Shown in pieces: positions 46,403 to 53,395 of a stretch of DNA of 64,000 bases. The DNA comes from Dehalococcoidia bacterium. Lineage in GTDB: Bacteria; Chloroflexota; Dehalococcoidia; UBA6926. How positions within the stretch are numbered: the stretch's first letter is position 1; each line of letters opens with the position of its first letter. The notes below the pieces were generated by a model that did no database searches, was not told the origin of the DNA, and was given only the letters and a program-made list of their open reading frames with translations. Both the position numbers and the translations under genes were made by a program. Where the stretch lies: contig OZ242019.1 of assembly GCA_965204885.1 (NCBI GenBank), positions 1,127,327-1,191,326 of the forward strand, read 5' to 3'.

Positions 46403-47233
46403 TCAGATCGCGATTTCTCGCAGATGTTCCTTGAGGTTCCTGGTCATGCTGCGCAGGGAGACTGCCGTAATGGATGCCGAAATGCCACCACCGGCAAGGG
46501 GAACCAGCTTGCTGATCCCTTTCGCGAACGAAGTCTTCGTCAGCCGCACGCCGATTGTGCGGAAGAGCGCGTACCTGAGAGGAATATAGAGCGGCGCAGC
46601 AGTCAGCCGGATCCTGGCGATGCGGTACGCGGCGTTTGACTTTGACGCCTCTGCAATCTCTTTCAAGCTGTCAGTCGCCTGGCGCACTCCGAAGACCGCG
46701 CCGACCAGCAGCCATATCCTGATCTCCGTTTCCTCATTCAGCTGCAGATCGCCGTCCTCGAACAGGTCGTCCCATCCGTACAGGTACATCAACTTCTGCG
46801 CGCATACCACCGCGTGCCAATTGAGTTGGGCAAGGTCCACCGGAAGCGTCGCCGCCATCAGCCATCCTCCCGGCAGCCCCGCCGCGAAGGAAACGCTGGA
46901 TGCCTTGACGATGTGCGACATGATGATGGCGTCGGCCATCCTGTCGAGCGTTTCCATGGGCACGCCGGCCGCCAGCGGCGTTGTCGCGATTGCCCGCCCG
47001 ACCTCGATGCTGTTCTGGGCGTAATGGCGATCCAGTTGTTTCCCCAAGAATGTTCTGCGGTCCACCTTCAATCCCGGGATAGCGGTCATCGCAGGCAGCA
47101 GACGCCGCAGAATGGGATGCGGGTCTCCGGCCCCGCCCTCGCCATTCCACTCACTGTCGTCGGCGCCGTCTTCCTCACGCGCCCGTGTTGGTGTATCGGT
47201 CACTCTTCTTCCCTCCGCGCTGTTCTCACTCAT
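46403..47233 (-). CDS. hypothetical protein (possibly EcsC-like)
   Basis: 276 aa, coding-like; no confident motif. Confidence 0.4.
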   Translation of the reverse strand: MSENSAEGRRVTDTPTRAREEDGADDSEWNGEGGAGDPHPILRRLLPAMTAIPGLKVDRRTFLGKQLDRHYAQNSIEVGRAIATTPLAAGVPMETLDRMADAIIMSHIVKASSVSFAAGLPGGWLMAATLPVDLAQLNWHAVVCAQKLMYLYGWDDLFEDGDLQLNEETEIRIWLLVGAVFGVRQATDSLKEIAEASKSNAAYRIARIRLTAAPLYIPLRYALFRTIGVRLTKTSFAKGISKLVPLAGGGISASITAVSLRSMTRNLKEHLREIAI

Positions 47234-47405: not shown

Positions 47406-48284
47406 CTATTCAAACGCGGGCATGCCGCAGAAGGCTTCGTAGTCGATGAGCTCCGTGACCGTCGGGTTTTCGCCGCAGGCGGGGCAGTTGGGATCCTTGC
47501 GGATCTTGACAGTCCGCATGTCCATGTCCAGCGCGTCGACCATGAGCAGTCGGTTCACGAGTGGCTTGCCGACGCCCAGGATGAGCTTGATGGCCTCCGT
47601 CGCCATGAGGGAGCCGACGATGCCCGGCAGCACGCCAAGCACGCCCGCCTCCGCGCAGGAGGGGACCATGCCGGGGGGGGGCGGCGCGGGGTAGAGGCAG
47701 CGGTAGCAGCCCTGCCCGGGCAGGAACGTGGTCACCTGGCCGTCAAACATGAAGATGGAGCCGTGCACGACGGGCTTGTCCATCAGCACGCCGAGGTCGT
47801 TGATGAGATAGCGCGTCGGGAAGTTGTCCGTCCCGTCGATGAGGATGTCAAACTCCTCCGCGATCTCCATCGCGTTTTCGGAGTTGATGTGCTTGGCGAT
47901 CTTGACGATCTCCGCATCCGGGTTGATCTCGCGGATGGTGTCCTCGGCGGAATCGACCTTGGGGCGGCCGATGTCGTCGTGCCCGTGCAGGAGTTGTCGA
48001 TGCAGGTTGGTGATATCGACATCATCGAAATCGACGATGCCGATCTTGCCGACGCCGGCGGCGGCCAGGTACATGGCGAGCGGGGAGCCGAGCCCGCCGG
48101 CCCCGACGAGCAGCACGCTCGCGTCCATGAGCTTGCGCTGCCCGATGCTGCCGACCTGCGGCATGATGATATGCCGACTGAATCGCTGCACCTGCTGGGG
48201 CGTCAGGGTGCGCGGCGCTTGAATGATTCCGTTCGCCGCCGCTCCGTTCGTGGTCGTTGTCGTTGTGGTCGTCGTAGTAGCCAT
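47406..48284 (-). CDS. MoeB/ThiF-family E1-like adenylyltransferase with N-terminal poly-Thr tract
   Basis: GAGGLGSP nucleotide-binding loop, CxxC pairs; MATTTTTTTTTTN from (ACN)10. Confidence 0.8.
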   Translation of the reverse strand: MATTTTTTTTTTNGAAANGIIQAPRTLTPQQVQRFSRHIIMPQVGSIGQRKLMDASVLLVGAGGLGSPLAMYLAAAGVGKIGIVDFDDVDITNLHRQLLHGHDDIGRPKVDSAEDTIREINPDAEIVKIAKHINSENAMEIAEEFDILIDGTDNFPTRYLINDLGVLMDKPVVHGSIFMFDGQVTTFLPGQGCYRCLYPAPPPPGMVPSCAEAGVLGVLPGIVGSLMATEAIKLILGVGKPLVNRLLMVDALDMDMRTVKIRKDPNCPACGENPTVTELIDYEAFCGMPAFE

Positions 48285-48347
48285 CCTCAGAGTCTCCCTT
48301 GTGGTGGTATCCCGTTCAGACAGTATAGGGGATTGGGGGTGGGTGGG

Positions 48348-48950
48348 TTACTCCACCGGCTCCCGTGCCGAGTAGAGCGAATTCAGGTCATCTGGCCTTA
48401 TACGGAACTTCGTGCCGTGGTCTCGGGCACTGCCACTATCCTGCAAGAAGGCGTCAGAATCGATGACTATTGTTCCATCTGCAATAAGTCGGATGAGTTG
48501 GGTAATTCTCGGTTCCCATAGGAACTCCGCAGACCTATAGGTCACCAGACGCGCTTGCCGATTCCATGACCCGCGAACGAGGACCAAGTAAACGGCGTTA
48601 CGCGCGAATTCATTGATCAAGGCATCATGTGACCAAGATTGCGCAAATCTAGCGCCTGCTTCACCTCCAACCTGAATCGAGCCCTCCGTGTCGGTGACGG
48701 CATGCGGCCCGCCAATATCTGGTTCCATGTCAAATAGCGCCAAATCTGAGGTTCCATCGGTGAACGCTATTTTCCATGCCCCTGCATCAGGCAGCGCCCG
48801 TTCGGACGCCTTTAGTTCGCGCAGGAGATGCACCAGATATAGCCTAGGAGCCTCCGACCCCTCAAAGCGGTCATCAGGTGATATGTCGTATTCCCGTGTT
48901 GCGAGAATCTCCTTCAATTTTCTTCTAACGCTTGCCCGTGGTGCTGCCAT
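48348..48950 (-). CDS. MvaI/BcnI-family restriction-endonuclease-like protein (no adjacent methyltransferase)
   Basis: C-terminal ...IDSDAFLQDSGSARDHGTKFRIRPDDLNSLY resembles, as I recall it, the BcnI C-terminus (...DQDLSKSKGPHDRGPHLRIPISKLDKLY); start taken at MAAPRASV; AT-richer region. Confidence 0.45.
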   Translation of the reverse strand: MAAPRASVRRKLKEILATREYDISPDDRFEGSEAPRLYLVHLLRELKASERALPDAGAWKIAFTDGTSDLALFDMEPDIGGPHAVTDTEGSIQVGGEAGARFAQSWSHDALINEFARNAVYLVLVRGSWNRQARLVTYRSAEFLWEPRITQLIRLIADGTIVIDSDAFLQDSGSARDHGTKFRIRPDDLNSLYSAREPVE

Positions 48951-49035
48951 GTTCTTTCCGATAGGCCACCCTAAACCGCCACTCGCCCCGTCACCGGCAT
49001 GACCGGCGCAGTGATAGGGAAGTGGGACAAGTGGC

Positions 49036-50810
49036 TTACTCGGCCTCCTCGTCGTCTTCCAGTTGGGTCGAGTCAAGCAGGAAATCCCATTCAGATGCCA
49101 GATGGTTCTGAATCACCTTTCCCCGTTTGTTGATGAATTCGAGATAATCCTCTCGAGTCTTGTCTTGTCGCTGCATTAGTTCTAGGCACTCAGCATCAAC
49201 AAAGAAAGTGTCAAATAGGGTGGTCAGCTCGTTTGGCCAATTGTCCCTAACGTCTTTGACTTGGTCAGAGGGGTTCATCTTGGCCCATCTCCGATTCGTA
49301 TCACCTGTAATTGGCATCACATTAAGTGCCAAGTCAGAATCAGGTGCCCTTCCGCCACTCCCCAAGAAGTCAGCCACGAATGCTCTGGGGAAGATGTGGT
49401 GACTATGCGCTGACACAATGGCCACGCCAGTCCCCCCGACAGGCTCTTTGTTCAGCGGATCCTTGGGCTGTCTCCTGCTTATCAGCATCGAAATGAGTTT
49501 GCCGATCGCGCTGGAGGGCTTAATGGTGTCCAAGGACCCTACGCGAACGTTCTTTAGCCAAGAGGGCTCGTTCTCTCCCTTAGAGTCAATCCACTCCAGC
49601 AACTCACGTTCATCTCTTGCCTGTGTTGTCGGCTGCGCCTCCGTATAACGTTGACTGATGACTGTACCCACGAACCACCGCTCAAGGCGGTCATGCCATC
49701 TTGCTTTCTCGTGGCTAGGACCACTGTAGGCGGATTCAATTTTGGCGAGTGCGATACCGAGCGGGGGCAGAATTGCAGGATACGGAATCAGCTGACCTGT
49801 GTGGTCTAACCCGGCCCCAAGGCGATTCGTCAGGAATTCTCCGACTCTGTCTAGCGCGTCAATCGCATCATTCTTCCGTTTTCTGTAATTGACATGCGTT
49901 ATCGTCTTTGGCAATAAAGATCTCTTAGGATTCTCTTGTTCCAGCAATGCTACCGTTTGCAGGAGCAATTCACCATTTGCGTCTATGTGCCGGTAGTAAG
50001 CCGATAGCTCCTTAAATTCATCTATGTCTTGTCTCAGGTGAATACCATGTGAATAGAGAACCGCAACAACAATTTCAACAGGAGTCAATCGCTGGCCAGA
50101 AGTGTTGAGAGTCGCGAACACGCGAGTTATCGCCTCAATTGGCATTCCCTCATCAAGTTCCGTCAGTGGAACTGTGGGTTGAATCCCGATTTTGAAATAA
50201 GTGTCAATGAATCTCTCCAAGAATTTGCGACGATTCGGATGTTGTTTCAGATACCTCTCTTTCGCATCCCCAAACAAATCGTTATCAGCAAGTGCGGCAG
50301 TCCATAGCAAGTGTGAGTCGACAAGGTCAATCGGATTGTTGTTGCGACGGCGGGCAACGAGGTACTTGTCGTCTTCGTCAAGATCCTCTGCCAAAGCGCG
50401 CAAATTCTCCCGGGAGTGGTCGGCGGTTGGAACATCCGGGTCGGCAATATCAGGAGCTACGTCGACTGCCTTATCCCACAGGTAACCTAGATTCAAGAAA
50501 TACTGTGACGATCCAAGCCCCCTATAAAGCGCGAGCCCAGCAGTAATACGCTGCTGTCCATCAAGGACATATGCGTCGATTGGGTCAGTGGCTTCAACAA
50601 CGGGGTCAAAGAGCCTAGGCGACGATTTAATCTGTCAGATGACTCAAGCGTAAGAAACGCTCCAATCGGATAGTTTTTTCGGATTGAATCGTAAAGGCGC
50701 ATGACCTTCGCCCGAGTCCATTTCCAATCTCGTTGAAACTCAGGAAGCCTGAGCTTGCCCGATGCGGCGTGGTCAACTAACTCCTTGAAGCTAATGGTCT
50801 CTGTCTTCAA
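49036..50810 (-). pseudogene. GmrSD-family (DUF262/DUF1524) type IV restriction enzyme gene disrupted by a frameshift
   Basis: N-terminal LPEFQRDWKW in one frame (50493-50810); canonical ...PIDAYVLDGQQRITAGLAL... continues in the -1 frame, with two in-frame TGAs near 50630-50645; downstream HSHHIFPRA (DUF1524). Confidence 0.7.
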
Positions 50811-50910
50811 TATCTCACTCCAGCACTAGCCCGTAGCATCTTGTCCTCATTGTGACACGAAGCGGCTGCGGAGTCGTTATTCGAAACCCTTATCAAGTGT
50901 GGGAATAACG

Positions 50911-50990
50911 TGGCGCGCCCGGCAGGATTCGAACCCGTGACCCTCGGTTCCGAAGACCGACTACCCTCTACTCCGTTGAGCTACGGGCAG
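50911..50990 (-). pseudogene. degenerate tRNA-Arg(TCG)-like copy
   Basis: About 90% identical to the tRNA-Arg at 51394-51470 but has a C1:C72 mismatch, a 3-nt insertion in the D-arm and a T-stem change. Confidence 0.45.
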
Positions 50991-51330
50991 GCAGGGGCGT
51001 TCGGAAGAACTGGTACATGCGGCCATTTGCGCCCGTGGACTCGGCGACAGGAATCCGGGGACGGTATTGGTAAGGTGGGGGCTCGTACTCTACTCGGACG
51101 TTATATTCGCGCAGAAAGTCATTCAACGTGTCCATGTCGGTGAGATTTTCCAGTTGTAACTCAATGGCCTCCGCAAGCATCGCAAACGCTTCCTCAACGG
51201 TGTCGCCGCAGCTGGCCACCCCAAGTTCCGGGCAGATTGAAACGTATTGATCGTCCTCGCGCTCAACCATTCCGGTCAGCAAAATGTACGCGCCCGATTG
51301 CGCCTTATCCCGCTGGGCCGACTTTACCAT
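50968..51330 (-). CDS. HicB-like (UPF0150) antitoxin-family protein, orphan
   Basis: YILLTGMVEREDDQYVSICPELGVASCGDTVEEAFAMLAEAIELQLE fits the HicB-like fold signature; its 3' end runs into the degenerate tRNA copy; no HicA partner seen. Confidence 0.5.
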   Translation of the reverse strand: MVKSAQRDKAQSGAYILLTGMVEREDDQYVSICPELGVASCGDTVEEAFAMLAEAIELQLENLTDMDTLNDFLREYNVRVEYEPPPYQYRPRIPVAESTGANGRMYQFFRTPLPARSSTE

Positions 51331-51393
51331 CTGACCTTTCCTCCCCGTCCGCTTGCTGGCGCCATCATCATTGTATCCGTGGGAACAGAATAG

Positions 51394-51470
51394 TGGCGCG
51401 CCCGGCAGGATTCGAACCCGCGACCCTCGGTTCCGAAGACCGATGCTCTACTCCACTGAGCTACGGGCGC
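51394..51470 (-). tRNA. tRNA-Arg (TCG)
   Basis: Reverse complement: GCGCCCG/CGGGCGC acceptor, D-arm GCTCAGTGGAGTAGAGC, anticodon stem TCGGT/ACCGA with loop CTTCGGA, GGTTCGAATCC T-arm. Confidence 0.8.
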
Positions 51471-51631
51471 ACGCCATCAATACAGACCAGTATCCATCGT
51501 AACGCTGATTGGGGTGGGGGTGCATGAGCGGTAGGGAATAGAGAGGGGCGCCCACCGCGGTGGGCGCCCCCTTCAACTCGATTATTCTGCGAGCCTGCGA
51601 TGGCTCGCGTTTGTCGGGTTGTCCGTTTTAG

Positions 51632-53395
51632 CTAGTTGTCCTCCAGCAGGTAGGTGTGCGCGTGGCGGTAGAAGTTGCCGTAGGACTGTGAGGGTACCGT
51701 CGGCATCACACCAGCCACCCGATCGGAGAAGACCGGAATCGCCAGCTGGAAGCCGCCAAGCGTGCGAACCTGGTCGCGCAGGACGATCTCACCTGCCTGC
51801 CAGGCCAACTCTCGCCGCTGCTCAGGATCAAGCTCCACGGACTGCGCGTCGATCAGCCTGTCCAACTCAGGGTTGGAGTACTGCCCGTAGTTCCTGCCGG
51901 AACCGGTGTAGAAGTACTCATATAGGATGAAGTCCGGGTCAAACCCGCCGATCCATCCTGCGTGGCCGCCCAGGTCGAAGTCGCCGGCGTTCATGCGGGT
52001 GTAGTAGTTGCCTGTTTCCATCTCACCGCTTTCGACGGAGATGCCGACCTCGTTGAGGTCCTCAAGCACGGTGGGCGCGTACACGCCGTAGAACGGGGCG
52101 TAGATCATCGTGGCCTGCAGCTCGCCCGGCTCATAGCCGGCGTCCGCCAGGATCTGGCGCGCCTGGTCCTTGTTCGCCTCGGGATCGCTGTAGTCGTGGC
52201 CCGTGATGGCCTTCAGCCGCTCCTCAGGCAGCGCGAAGTAGCTGCCGGGGAGGAATGGGCCGCCGGTCCCGGGGGCAATCCAGTCGTTGTAGCCGAGCTT
52301 GATGAGCCGGTTCCGGTCAATCGCCAGGCTGATGGCGTCACGCACGGGCTGCGTGTTCCACGGCTCCCGATTGAAGTTCGGGATGACGGAGAACATCATG
52401 CCGGGGTGGACGGCTGACGCCCACTTCTGGCAGATGTCGCATTCGCGCAGCAGGGTGTTTGCATTCGCTCCGTTCCACCCGCCGGCGCTGCCGCCGATGT
52501 GGATGCGGCCGGAGCGGAGGCCCGCAACCTGCGCCTGGTTGTTGAGAATCAGGATCTCAATCGAGTCAAGGTACGGGAACGGCTGGTCCCAGTAATCGTC
52601 CTTGCGCTCCATGACCATCTTCTCGCCGGGGATCCAGTCTCCCACAACGAAGGGGCCGGTGCCGATCGGGGGCTCTTCACGCATCCGATTCATGTCATCG
52701 GCATAGAGATGGCTGGGCTTGACTACGTGGTACGGCAGCCCGATCACTTCAAGCAGCGAAGGCTTCGGGCGCTCCAGATGGAAAACGGCCGTCAGGTCGT
52801 CGGCGCATGTCGTGTCCGTGAGGGACGCGAAGTGTGCCGAGCGCGGATTGCGCAGCAGGCCGTCGCCCGTGCGGAGCGTGTCATACGCAAACTCGATGTC
52901 CGCGCACGAGAAGGCGACACCATCGGAGAATGCGACGCCATCACGCAGATTGAACGTCCACGTCAGGCCGTCCGTCGCCTGCTCCCAGTCAGTGGCAAGG
53001 TCAGGAACGATGGTCCAGTAGTCCCCGTTGATGAAGTTCTCCTTGTTGCCCCAGTCCTGCTTGGAAACAAGCATGTTGCCCACCGGGTGGCCGTAATGCG
53101 GCGCGCTTCCGGCTGCTTCCTCCCAGTTGCTGAACGTTGGGCCTTCGGACGTCGTCGCGATGATCAGCGTCCCACCGTAGCGCGCGTTCGGATCAACCGG
53201 TACGCCGCTCACGGAATGGGTCATCATGTCATCGCTCATATCATCGTCCATGTCGTCATCCATGGACGTGTCTTCGCCGGATGTGTCGGTAGATGTGTCG
53301 TCCTCATCATCCGATGCTGTTCCGCACGCCGACGCAACGACAAGGAACGCTGCCGCCACAAGCGCGAGCAGTAGAAACGTGATGCGATTCGTCAT
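51632..53395 (-). CDS. ABC transporter substrate-binding protein, family 5, lipoprotein
   Basis: Lipobox VVASAC, acidic linker, SBP_bac_5 core. Confidence 0.8.
   Translation of the reverse strand: MTNRITFLLLALVAAAFLVVASACGTASDDEDDTSTDTSGEDTSMDDDMDDDMSDDMMTHSVSGVPVDPNARYGGTLIIATTSEGPTFSNWEEAAGSAPHYGHPVGNMLVSKQDWGNKENFINGDYWTIVPDLATDWEQATDGLTWTFNLRDGVAFSDGVAFSCADIEFAYDTLRTGDGLLRNPRSAHFASLTDTTCADDLTAVFHLERPKPSLLEVIGLPYHVVKPSHLYADDMNRMREEPPIGTGPFVVGDWIPGEKMVMERKDDYWDQPFPYLDSIEILILNNQAQVAGLRSGRIHIGGSAGGWNGANANTLLRECDICQKWASAVHPGMMFSVIPNFNREPWNTQPVRDAISLAIDRNRLIKLGYNDWIAPGTGGPFLPGSYFALPEERLKAITGHDYSDPEANKDQARQILADAGYEPGELQATMIYAPFYGVYAPTVLEDLNEVGISVESGEMETGNYYTRMNAGDFDLGGHAGWIGGFDPDFILYEYFYTGSGRNYGQYSNPELDRLIDAQSVELDPEQRRELAWQAGEIVLRDQVRTLGGFQLAIPVFSDRVAGVMPTVPSQSYGNFYRHAHTYLLEDN

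Follow-up and report, generated by a model that had tools for sequence, protein, structure and literature searches.

The segment at 48.3-51.5 kb of a 64-kb stretch of Dehalococcoidia bacterium DNA (contig OZ242019.1; the whole 64,000-nucleotide stretch that was analysed is called the window below) lies between a tRNA-Arg(UCG) gene and a moeB/ThiF-family gene, and carries a small group of defence-type genes, among them one for a protein of the MvaI/BcnI family of type II restriction endonucleases that is probably disarmed. An earlier note on this DNA, made from its letters alone, had drawn attention to four features here: a HicB-like gene, a second copy of the tRNA, a broken GmrSD gene and a 200-amino-acid open reading frame (ORF). 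All four are present where it had placed them, every one on the minus strand. Together with their flanks the features are as follows.

51394 to 51470, minus strand: putatively functional tRNA-Arg(UCG), the upstream boundary of the islet (ARAGORN; Rfam RF00005, 69.4 bits)
50968 to 51330, minus strand: hicB-like antitoxin ORF of 120 amino acids (Pfam DUF7387, HicB_lk_antitox)
50989 to 50992: junction, with GCC microhomology, of the 264-bp deletion that removed hicA (comparison with the related locus L009)
50911 to 50990, minus strand: degenerate second tRNA-Arg copy of 80 nucleotides, apparently an att-like hybrid (ARAGORN, Rfam, repeat comparison)
49036 to 50810, minus strand: GmrSD-family type IV restriction gene (DUF262 plus His-Me nuclease) with a TTG start, frameshifted (Pfam GmrSD_N, alignment)
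48348 to 48950, minus strand: MvaI/BcnI-family protein of 200 amino acids, probably catalytically disarmed (Pfam, profile, alignment, fold model)
47406 to 48284, minus strand: moeB/ThiF-family gene, the conserved downstream flank (omega 0.01-0.10)
51632 to 53395, minus strand: SBP_bac_5 solute-binding protein gene, the conserved upstream flank

Over 48.3-51.3 kb the guanine-plus-cytosine (GC) content is 0.46-0.57 as against about 0.62-0.65 on either flank, so the segment is AT-richer than the moeB and solute-binding protein genes beside it, as had been said. An Rfam scan of the islet gave the two tRNA matches as its only credible ones, no integrase is present among the islet ORFs, and a scan for promoter and terminator consensus sequences (48200-51700) was uninformative, the number of sites not being above that in shuffled sequence. 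Related loci are labelled L001-L013 and homologous proteins P0001-P0022; the relatives are metagenome-assembled genomes (MAGs) labelled Dehalococcoidia bacterium, with chromosomes of 1.6-2.0 Mb. The closest complete relative, L009 (OZ241912.1), has ~90% nucleotide identity to the window, and the tRNA-Arg(UCG) is at the same place in L001-L004, L007-L009 and L013.

The 200-amino-acid ORF begins at an ATG (48950) that is common to all its homologues. Its match to Pfam MvaI_BcnI (PF15515; 36.7 bits, cut-off 25, E 5.9e-9) is limited to the C-terminus, the part whose likeness to MvaI/BcnI enzymes had been noticed earlier; profile and fold comparisons extend that likeness to the whole protein. The family profile matches R.MvaI (E 2.9e-15) and R.BcnI (E 2.2e-8). 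With an AlphaFold (AF2) model of the protein (predicted local distance difference test, pLDDT, 78; predicted template modelling score, pTM, 0.75), the top six Foldseek matches were all MvaI/BcnI with probability 1.0 and were the sole significant matches in the PDB, the best being DNA-bound MvaI, 2oaa (E 5.5e-10, template modelling score, TM, 0.73). A search of 5.8 billion proteins gave 21 relatives at E <= 1e-3, which on alignment form two groups: proteins of 227-230 amino acids with LYLEHLL...PDAGAWEVKFT, and a disarmed group, shorter through an internal deletion, that consists of the window protein and P0001-P0005 and has LYL(V/L)HLL...P(D/N)AGAWK(I/V)(A/V)FT.

The active-site residues of MvaI are Glu36, Asp50, Glu55 and Lys57 (PMC1874612). 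The family E, D and E-x-K align to MvaI sequence positions 39, 53, 58 and 60, which are those four residues in the numbering of the structure paper. Where the family has LYLEHLL, PD and WEVK, the window protein has LYLVHLL, PD and WKIA, the equivalents being V40 (48833-48831), D55 (48788-48786), K60 (48773-48771) and A62 (48767-48765). The catalytic E...D-x4-E-x-K motif thus fails, with three of its four residues replaced, and in the L002 homologue the Asp has gone as well (LNKA). The recognition lobe is also incomplete: a single 30-residue gap relative to the L004 enzyme (48% identity), which falls between codons 82 and 83 (~48705/48704), takes out the equivalents of Arg85, Lys90, His100, Thr102 and Arg107, and the equivalents of Asn45, Thr68, Lys72 and Tyr213 are altered. 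The major-groove loop is kept (MvaI His223-Asp224-His225...Arg230; HDHGTAFRI becoming RDHGTKFRI), as is the equivalent of Asp207. The disarmed clade is acidic (isoelectric point, pI, 4.8-5.4; net charge -6 to -13) in comparison with canonical relatives (pI 6.4-9.9). With only one catalytic residue of the four left and part of the recognition lobe missing, the window protein would not be able to cleave DNA, and it is predicted to be without nuclease activity.

Such a prediction is pertinent to what had seemed odd about the locus, the absence of a partner. Among the window ORFs of at least 80 amino acids none is homologous to the cognate methyltransferase or has a credible DPPY-type or PCQ/ENV motif, which agrees with the earlier statement that no cognate methyltransferase is in the window; nor was such a homologue found in the 8-10 kb examined on either side in the six disarmed-clade loci. 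In the canonical relatives P0007, P0009, P0015 and P0018 there is in each case an overlapping upstream PF01555 (N6_N4) methyltransferase, with the motif order TSPPY...DPFMGSGTT (SPPY, beta-class N4/N6). Hidden Markov models were built from alignment A1, the intact GmrSD orthologues and these methyltransferases, and were run on 88 genome-derived and 80 metagenome loci. Nearly all full-length members there have the four catalytic residues as EDEK, which is kept in ~150 other loci; seven full-length members have one substitution (QDEK, KDEK, EAEK or EDKK). Wherever the contig leaves room, a homologous PF01555 methyltransferase adjoins each full-length member. The forms VDKA, LNKA, LDKV and MDKA are restricted to the six-genome Dehalococcoidia clade, and this methyltransferase accompanies none of them in the loci examined. 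For further members of that clade, the 5.8-billion-protein search gave only five besides the window's own, and the JGI metagenome scan none, its best match being 40% identical and of EDEK type.

The earlier note had raised a solitary, possibly modification-dependent MvaI/BcnI nuclease as one possibility, and an active solitary enzyme, whether it requires modified DNA or is kept harmless by an unlinked methyltransferase or by avoidance of its sites, deserves consideration. In its favour, the ORF is unbroken and its MvaI_BcnI match significant, the HDH-type loop (RDHGTKFRI) and the Asp207 equivalent are kept, separated restriction-modification (R-M) systems exist (PMC3488263), and MvaI itself is reported to have a methylation-dependent nicking side activity (PMC3001055). 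However, a metal-ligand Glu has become Lys, the catalytic Lys has become Ala, the Glu36 equivalent is Val, Leu or Met across the clade, with the further loss of Asp in L002, and essentially every catalytically intact relative has its methyltransferase adjacent. Site avoidance does not apply, since potential sites are plentiful in the window; the counts of CCWGG (161) and CCSGG (240) are 0.74 and 0.71 of a simple base-composition expectation that has no Markov background and is too crude to interpret. After such losses at the active site and in the recognition lobe, an active solitary nuclease is very improbable indeed, and that part of the earlier proposal is not supported. A disarmed R protein would be tolerated without a methyltransferase because it cannot cut. 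On its sequence, the ORF is best described as a member of the MvaI/BcnI family, in sequence and fold, that has neither the catalytic motif nor the methyltransferase linkage of the family and is presumably inactive, not a restriction enzyme.

An inactive enzyme gene could be simply a pseudogene that has not yet acquired a stop codon, in an islet that is as a whole on its way out. Apart from the catalytic losses and the shortened recognition lobe, several features are of the kind that such a relic would have. Nested central deletions in one region differ by lineage (longest in L008, then L002, then the window, L001 and L009, then L007), the dead R gene of L008 is frameshifted, the recognition loop and base-contact residues are changed further in L002 and L007, and the adjoining genes are decaying. 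Against this, the deletions are all in-frame in the four intact ORFs compared (window, L001, L002 and L007), and the ORF is open in five of the six genomes over synonymous divergence (dS) of up to about 1. Selection is also evident. The ratio of nonsynonymous to synonymous substitution (dN/dS, omega) within the disarmed clade is 0.23-0.29 by the Nei-Gojobori method (NG86; bootstrap 95% intervals 0.14-0.50) and 0.26-0.38 by pairwise Goldman-Yang maximum likelihood (GY94). Omega = 1 is rejected in every comparison (p = 3e-3 to 4e-10), including the independent pairs window-L001 (p = 3e-3) and L002-L007 (p = 1e-9). The N-terminal third is about as constrained as the C-terminal third, and the middle less so; overall, constraint is ~3 times weaker than in active homologues, for which omega is 0.09 (the value for moeB being 0.01-0.10), and this lower stringency is what a relic would lead one to expect. 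The disarmed protein is not a neutral pseudogene, and a pure relic is an unlikely explanation. The moderate purifying selection likely reflects some non-nucleolytic role rather than pure relic status, the candidates being perhaps residual binding via the kept RDHGTKFRI loop or a protein-protein role. A non-canonical use of the fold, which had been raised as an alternative to decay, therefore survives in a weakened sense, to the extent that a dead protein under purifying selection probably does something, though not DNA cleavage.

The neighbouring GmrSD-like gene is relevant to what that role might be. It is split into ORFs at 50810-50493 (105 amino acids, GmrSD_N 40 bits) and 50496-49036 (486 amino acids), and the break is one T missing between 50624 and 50623 (AATC[T]GTC) in comparison with the intact genes of L002 and L007. 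The position is outside any homopolymer and inside the 50620-50650 interval previously estimated for the frameshift. When the T is re-inserted, a 591-amino-acid ORF from the TTG results, with omega versus L002 and L007 of 0.05-0.06; given the strong constraint on the gene otherwise (omega 0.05), the frameshift is either of very recent date or an artefact of assembly. For the intact orthologues, gene callers choose an internal Met and so give a protein of 555 amino acids; they miss 36 conserved in-frame codons upstream, which begin at the TTG, include an LPEFQRDWKW motif and bring the protein to 591 amino acids (L002 8135-8242, L007 6103-6210, window 50810-50700). The assignment to the DUF262/DUF1524 type stands in its first half. 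GmrSD_N matches the intact L002 orthologue with 83 bits, and the motifs RLYDS, DGQQR and HHIFP are counterparts of the GmrSD/BrxU family motifs RLFDS, DGQQR and DHIYP (PMC8565348), with invariant columns H435, H436, P439, N461 and N470 in the C-terminal part that holds HHIFP. For a model of P0022 (92% identical; pLDDT 84) BrxU 7p9k is the sole significant PDB match, over the full length (TM 0.5). As to the second half, Pfam DUF1524 gave no match at E <= 1 for the window fragment or at E <= 0.01 for the intact L002 orthologue, and it is annotated in none of 120 homologues among the matches listed.

In the window and in L001, L002, L007, L008 and L009, the place that separates the tRNA from the dead R gene is taken by DUF262 nuclease genes. 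These are of three kinds, namely the window type, the divergent type of L001 and, in L009, a DUF262-HNH gene in inverted orientation. The last (L009 6202-7792, on the opposite strand) encodes 413 amino acids, has NsnA as its best PADLOC match (1.3e-31), and has beside it a 113-amino-acid ORF without a family match. Could the two genes be a functional module, in which the dead MvaI-like protein acts on or with the adjacent nuclease but has no catalysis of its own, as a sensor, specificity factor, or regulator or inhibitor? Adjacency in six of six genomes in three versions, together with the purifying selection on the dead protein and its acidity, is in keeping with this. However, the subfamily, with >360 homologues for which Pfam gives only PF03235, has its gene standing alone among housekeeping genes, with no MvaI-like neighbour, in all three other genomes examined, and BrxU-type enzymes act as single polypeptides (PMC8565348). 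Moreover, the nuclease gene is intact in L002 and L007 but independently broken in three of the six genomes (in the window, in L001 as a divergent allele with an N-terminal frameshift, and in L008 by an N-terminal deletion plus a C-terminal frameshift), while the dead protein is intact in five. PADLOC gave only weak REase_II and MTase_II matches for the dead protein and none to a model of a partner component, and a shared defence hotspot explains the adjacency equally well. No NCBIfam model matched the dead R protein, the L004 R protein, HicB, the GmrSD-like protein or a 276-amino-acid neighbour; the L004 M protein matched generic methyltransferase models. A two-gene module is distinctly doubtful, more so than the pure relic, and an obligate pairing of GmrSD with the dead R protein is ruled out as the main explanation, since the subfamily is solitary in three of three genomes and the slot in L009 holds a different, inverted gene.

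Nearest to the tRNA lies a remnant of another kind. The HicB-like ORF passes the Pfam cut-off for DUF7387 (28.7 bits, cut-off 27.9) and is just under that for HicB_lk_antitox (25.9 bits, cut-off 27). In L009 the hicB orthologue ends ...FFRTPLPA* and is followed by an 84-amino-acid HicA (PF07927, 29.7 bits), whereas the 264 bp that hold hicA there (L009 5787-6050) have no counterpart in the window, the junction being at ~50990 with 3 bp of microhomology. The window hicB is an orphan, as had been recognised, because this deletion removed hicA, and for the same reason it reads on into the pseudo-tRNA, from which its last 5 codons and stop come. In L008 hicA is frameshifted and the tRNA copy halved. 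The second tRNA-Arg copy of the window, which had been described as mutated and near full length, indeed has a 3-nucleotide insertion, a C1-C72 mismatch and a T-stem mismatch (Rfam 31.1 bits, gathering score 29). Its 3' part is one arm of a direct repeat (50910-50960 and 51393-51443) that covers the 3' 51 nucleotides of the tRNA with 50 of 51 identical. Its 5' part has diverged (a CT start and a GGGTAGT insertion), and the copy in L009 has the same differences, confined to the 5' part. Such a distribution would fit a hybrid att site formed by integration into the anticodon-stem-to-3' region of the tRNA.

A recent island, with low GC as its proof, was among the models considered. No relative has an empty tRNA-Arg|moeB junction: every related genome holds a cassette at the site, either a methyltransferase and R gene (M+R) or a DUF262 gene with a dead R gene, and a recent island with an empty site is thereby ruled out. 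Five further related genomes have the block in the same position, so the islet block is an old feature of the lineage and not a recent island. The earlier note had taken the block's presence in all close relatives with uniform GC as speaking against its own proposal; the block is there in five relatives, but its GC differs from that of the flanks. Low GC as proof of recent acquisition is ruled out too, the active M-R cassettes at the same locus being equally low (0.53-0.57), and what it marks is the cassette family, not a recent arrival. Intact M-R pairs occupy the same tRNA-Arg|ThiF junction in two related Dehalococcoidia MAGs, L003 and L004. The moeB genes of L002 and L004 differ by a dS of only 0.16, yet L002 has GmrSD plus the dead R gene and L004 has M+R; between L007 and the window, the dead R gene has a dS of 0.92 and moeB one of 0.34. 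Because the divergence of R genes and cassettes disagrees with that of moeB, the locus is a hotspot where recombination through the conserved flanks swaps one cassette for another.

Other observations in these genomes may be recorded here. The active M-R cassette of L005 (5225-9150) lies with an IS1595-family transposase inside a cytochrome P450 gene, fragments of which (349 and 137 amino acids) flank it, and this suggests that the intact R-M pair moves with the insertion sequence (IS) element. A 174-amino-acid ORF between the active R gene and ThiF of L004 (8721-9245) has no Pfam, PADLOC or NCBIfam match and is not in the window. The N-terminus of moeB/ThiF (window 48284-48249, minus strand) has a poly-threonine tract, MATTTTTTTTTTNG, whose length and purity differ between relatives: 9 consecutive Thr in L001, TTTTETxTT in L002 and L004, and TTTTPT in L003. 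On the far side of moeB/ThiF, before a PALP (cysteine-synthase-like) gene, there is a second variable slot (window 46403-47233, minus strand). In the window, L001, L002 and L004 it has an ORF of 266-278 amino acids without Pfam or NCBIfam match; in L003 (10411-12048) an N6_N4_Mtase-Mrr_cat fusion; in L007 (10374-14371) Uma2 and DUF7380/EMARD genes; and in L008 (9839-11506) DUF6978 and DUF1828/1829 genes. Because of this slot, moeB is flanked by two defence-type hotspots.

When these strands are combined, the 48.3-51.5 kb segment at the tRNA-Arg(UCG)|moeB junction is probably a defence locus that is old, specific to its lineage and in part decayed, and that includes the disarmed R protein of a former type II R-M system, kept by selection. 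The suggestion of a decaying defence island captured at a tRNA thus survives in good part: the islet lies 3' of tRNA-Arg with an att-like repeat, an antitoxin without its toxin and a broken type IV gene, and relatives have these parts in differing states, some intact and others frameshifted, truncated or swapped. Three layers may be envisaged. The first would be a ~480-bp remnant of a tRNA-integrated element between the real tRNA and the hybrid pseudo-tRNA, formerly with hicB-hicA; the second, a stand-alone GmrSD/BrxU-type type IV gene whose 1-nucleotide deletion is very recent or, if an assembly error, only apparent; and the third, the MvaI/BcnI-family protein as what would be the disarmed R half of the former R-M system. 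In the disarmed clade, other genes would have taken the methyltransferase slot, while catalytic residues were replaced, the lobe was cut and the protein turned acidic. The order may have been inactivation of R first, with M lost or replaced afterwards. A plausible scenario is that the arrival of a modification-dependent nuclease made resident methylation a liability, so that loss of M would have been favoured, and would have been survivable only with R disarmed.

Several considerations weigh on the other side. PD-(D/E)XK enzymes at times recruit catalytic residues from other positions, and the loss of nuclease activity is here deduced from sequence. The methyltransferase search covers the 64 kb of the window, and a distant copy may be present elsewhere in the genome. 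An omega of about 0.3 argues against a pure relic without assigning a function, and the kept major-groove recognition loop fits poorly with the acidic overall charge. Furthermore, the identity between dead and active alleles is only ~48-58%, and the trees of genes at this locus conflict with that of moeB. Since cassettes recombined, replacement of M and disarming of R need not have occurred in this lineage.

The overall picture is of an ordinary decaying defence locus plus one modestly novel element, the retained homologue of a restriction enzyme that, by its residues, would be catalytically dead. With the enzyme disarmed, the paradox of a type II restriction enzyme without a protecting methyltransferase would be removed. 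What the sister genomes offer is a natural snapshot of the death of an R-M system, one locus in three states: intact M-R pairs, a disarmed R gene beside an intact type IV gene, and fully decaying versions. The sole part that goes past textbook expectation is continued purifying selection on the disarmed protein. A new role, if there is one, would add a rare documented case in which the MvaI/BcnI fold was exapted; a related fold, that of MutH, does non-restriction work (PMC1874612). One conjecture is that the acidic dead protein was exapted for half-site DNA binding, or as a regulator, decoy or inhibitor of the neighbouring DUF262 nucleases. This is tentative, and the chances are rather against it. 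It would, if true, be a natural case of a restriction enzyme turned into a non-cutting defence accessory protein after methyltransferase loss. There is also a lesson for annotation, namely that the E-D-ExK residues should be checked before matches to PF15515 are named restriction enzymes.

Among known systems, the closest are R.MvaI and R.BcnI (PF15515; PDB 2oa9/2oaa and 2odh/2odi), monomeric type IIP enzymes with which the window protein shares the family, the two-lobed fold, the active-site spacing and the C-terminal loop. Unlike them, it has Val, Lys and Ala in place of Glu36, Glu55 and Lys57, is acidic rather than neutral or basic, and has no adjacent methyltransferase. Active-site mutation is one listed explanation for the solitary restriction enzyme genes surveyed by Ershova et al. 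2012 (PMC3488263), and the window ORF, likewise a restriction enzyme homologue without a linked methyltransferase, fits that category. It goes beyond the cases there in having a residue-by-residue diagnosis, an intact M-R pair of the ancestral type at this locus in sister genomes, and purifying selection that holds over several genomes, and in not being a fragment. With BrxU/GmrSD (PDB 7p9k), the window-type gene shares the N-terminal DUF262 motifs, the (D/H)HI(Y/F)P His-Me motif, the invariant His and Asn, and, elsewhere, single-gene organisation; it differs in that identity is ~14%, Pfam DUF1524 is undetected and the window copy has the 1-nucleotide frameshift. The HicB-like/DUF7387 antitoxin is what is common with HicAB type II modules, hicA being directly downstream in L009 and L008 and deleted in the window. 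With tRNA islets that have att duplications, there is agreement in the site 3' of a tRNA, the repeat from anticodon stem to 3' end (50 of 51 nucleotides) and GC lower than that of the flanks. Unlike in those, there is no integrase and no empty site in any relative, and the repeat encloses the hicB(A) remnant only; the GmrSD and MvaI-like genes lie outside it, as part of an older, recombining hotspot.

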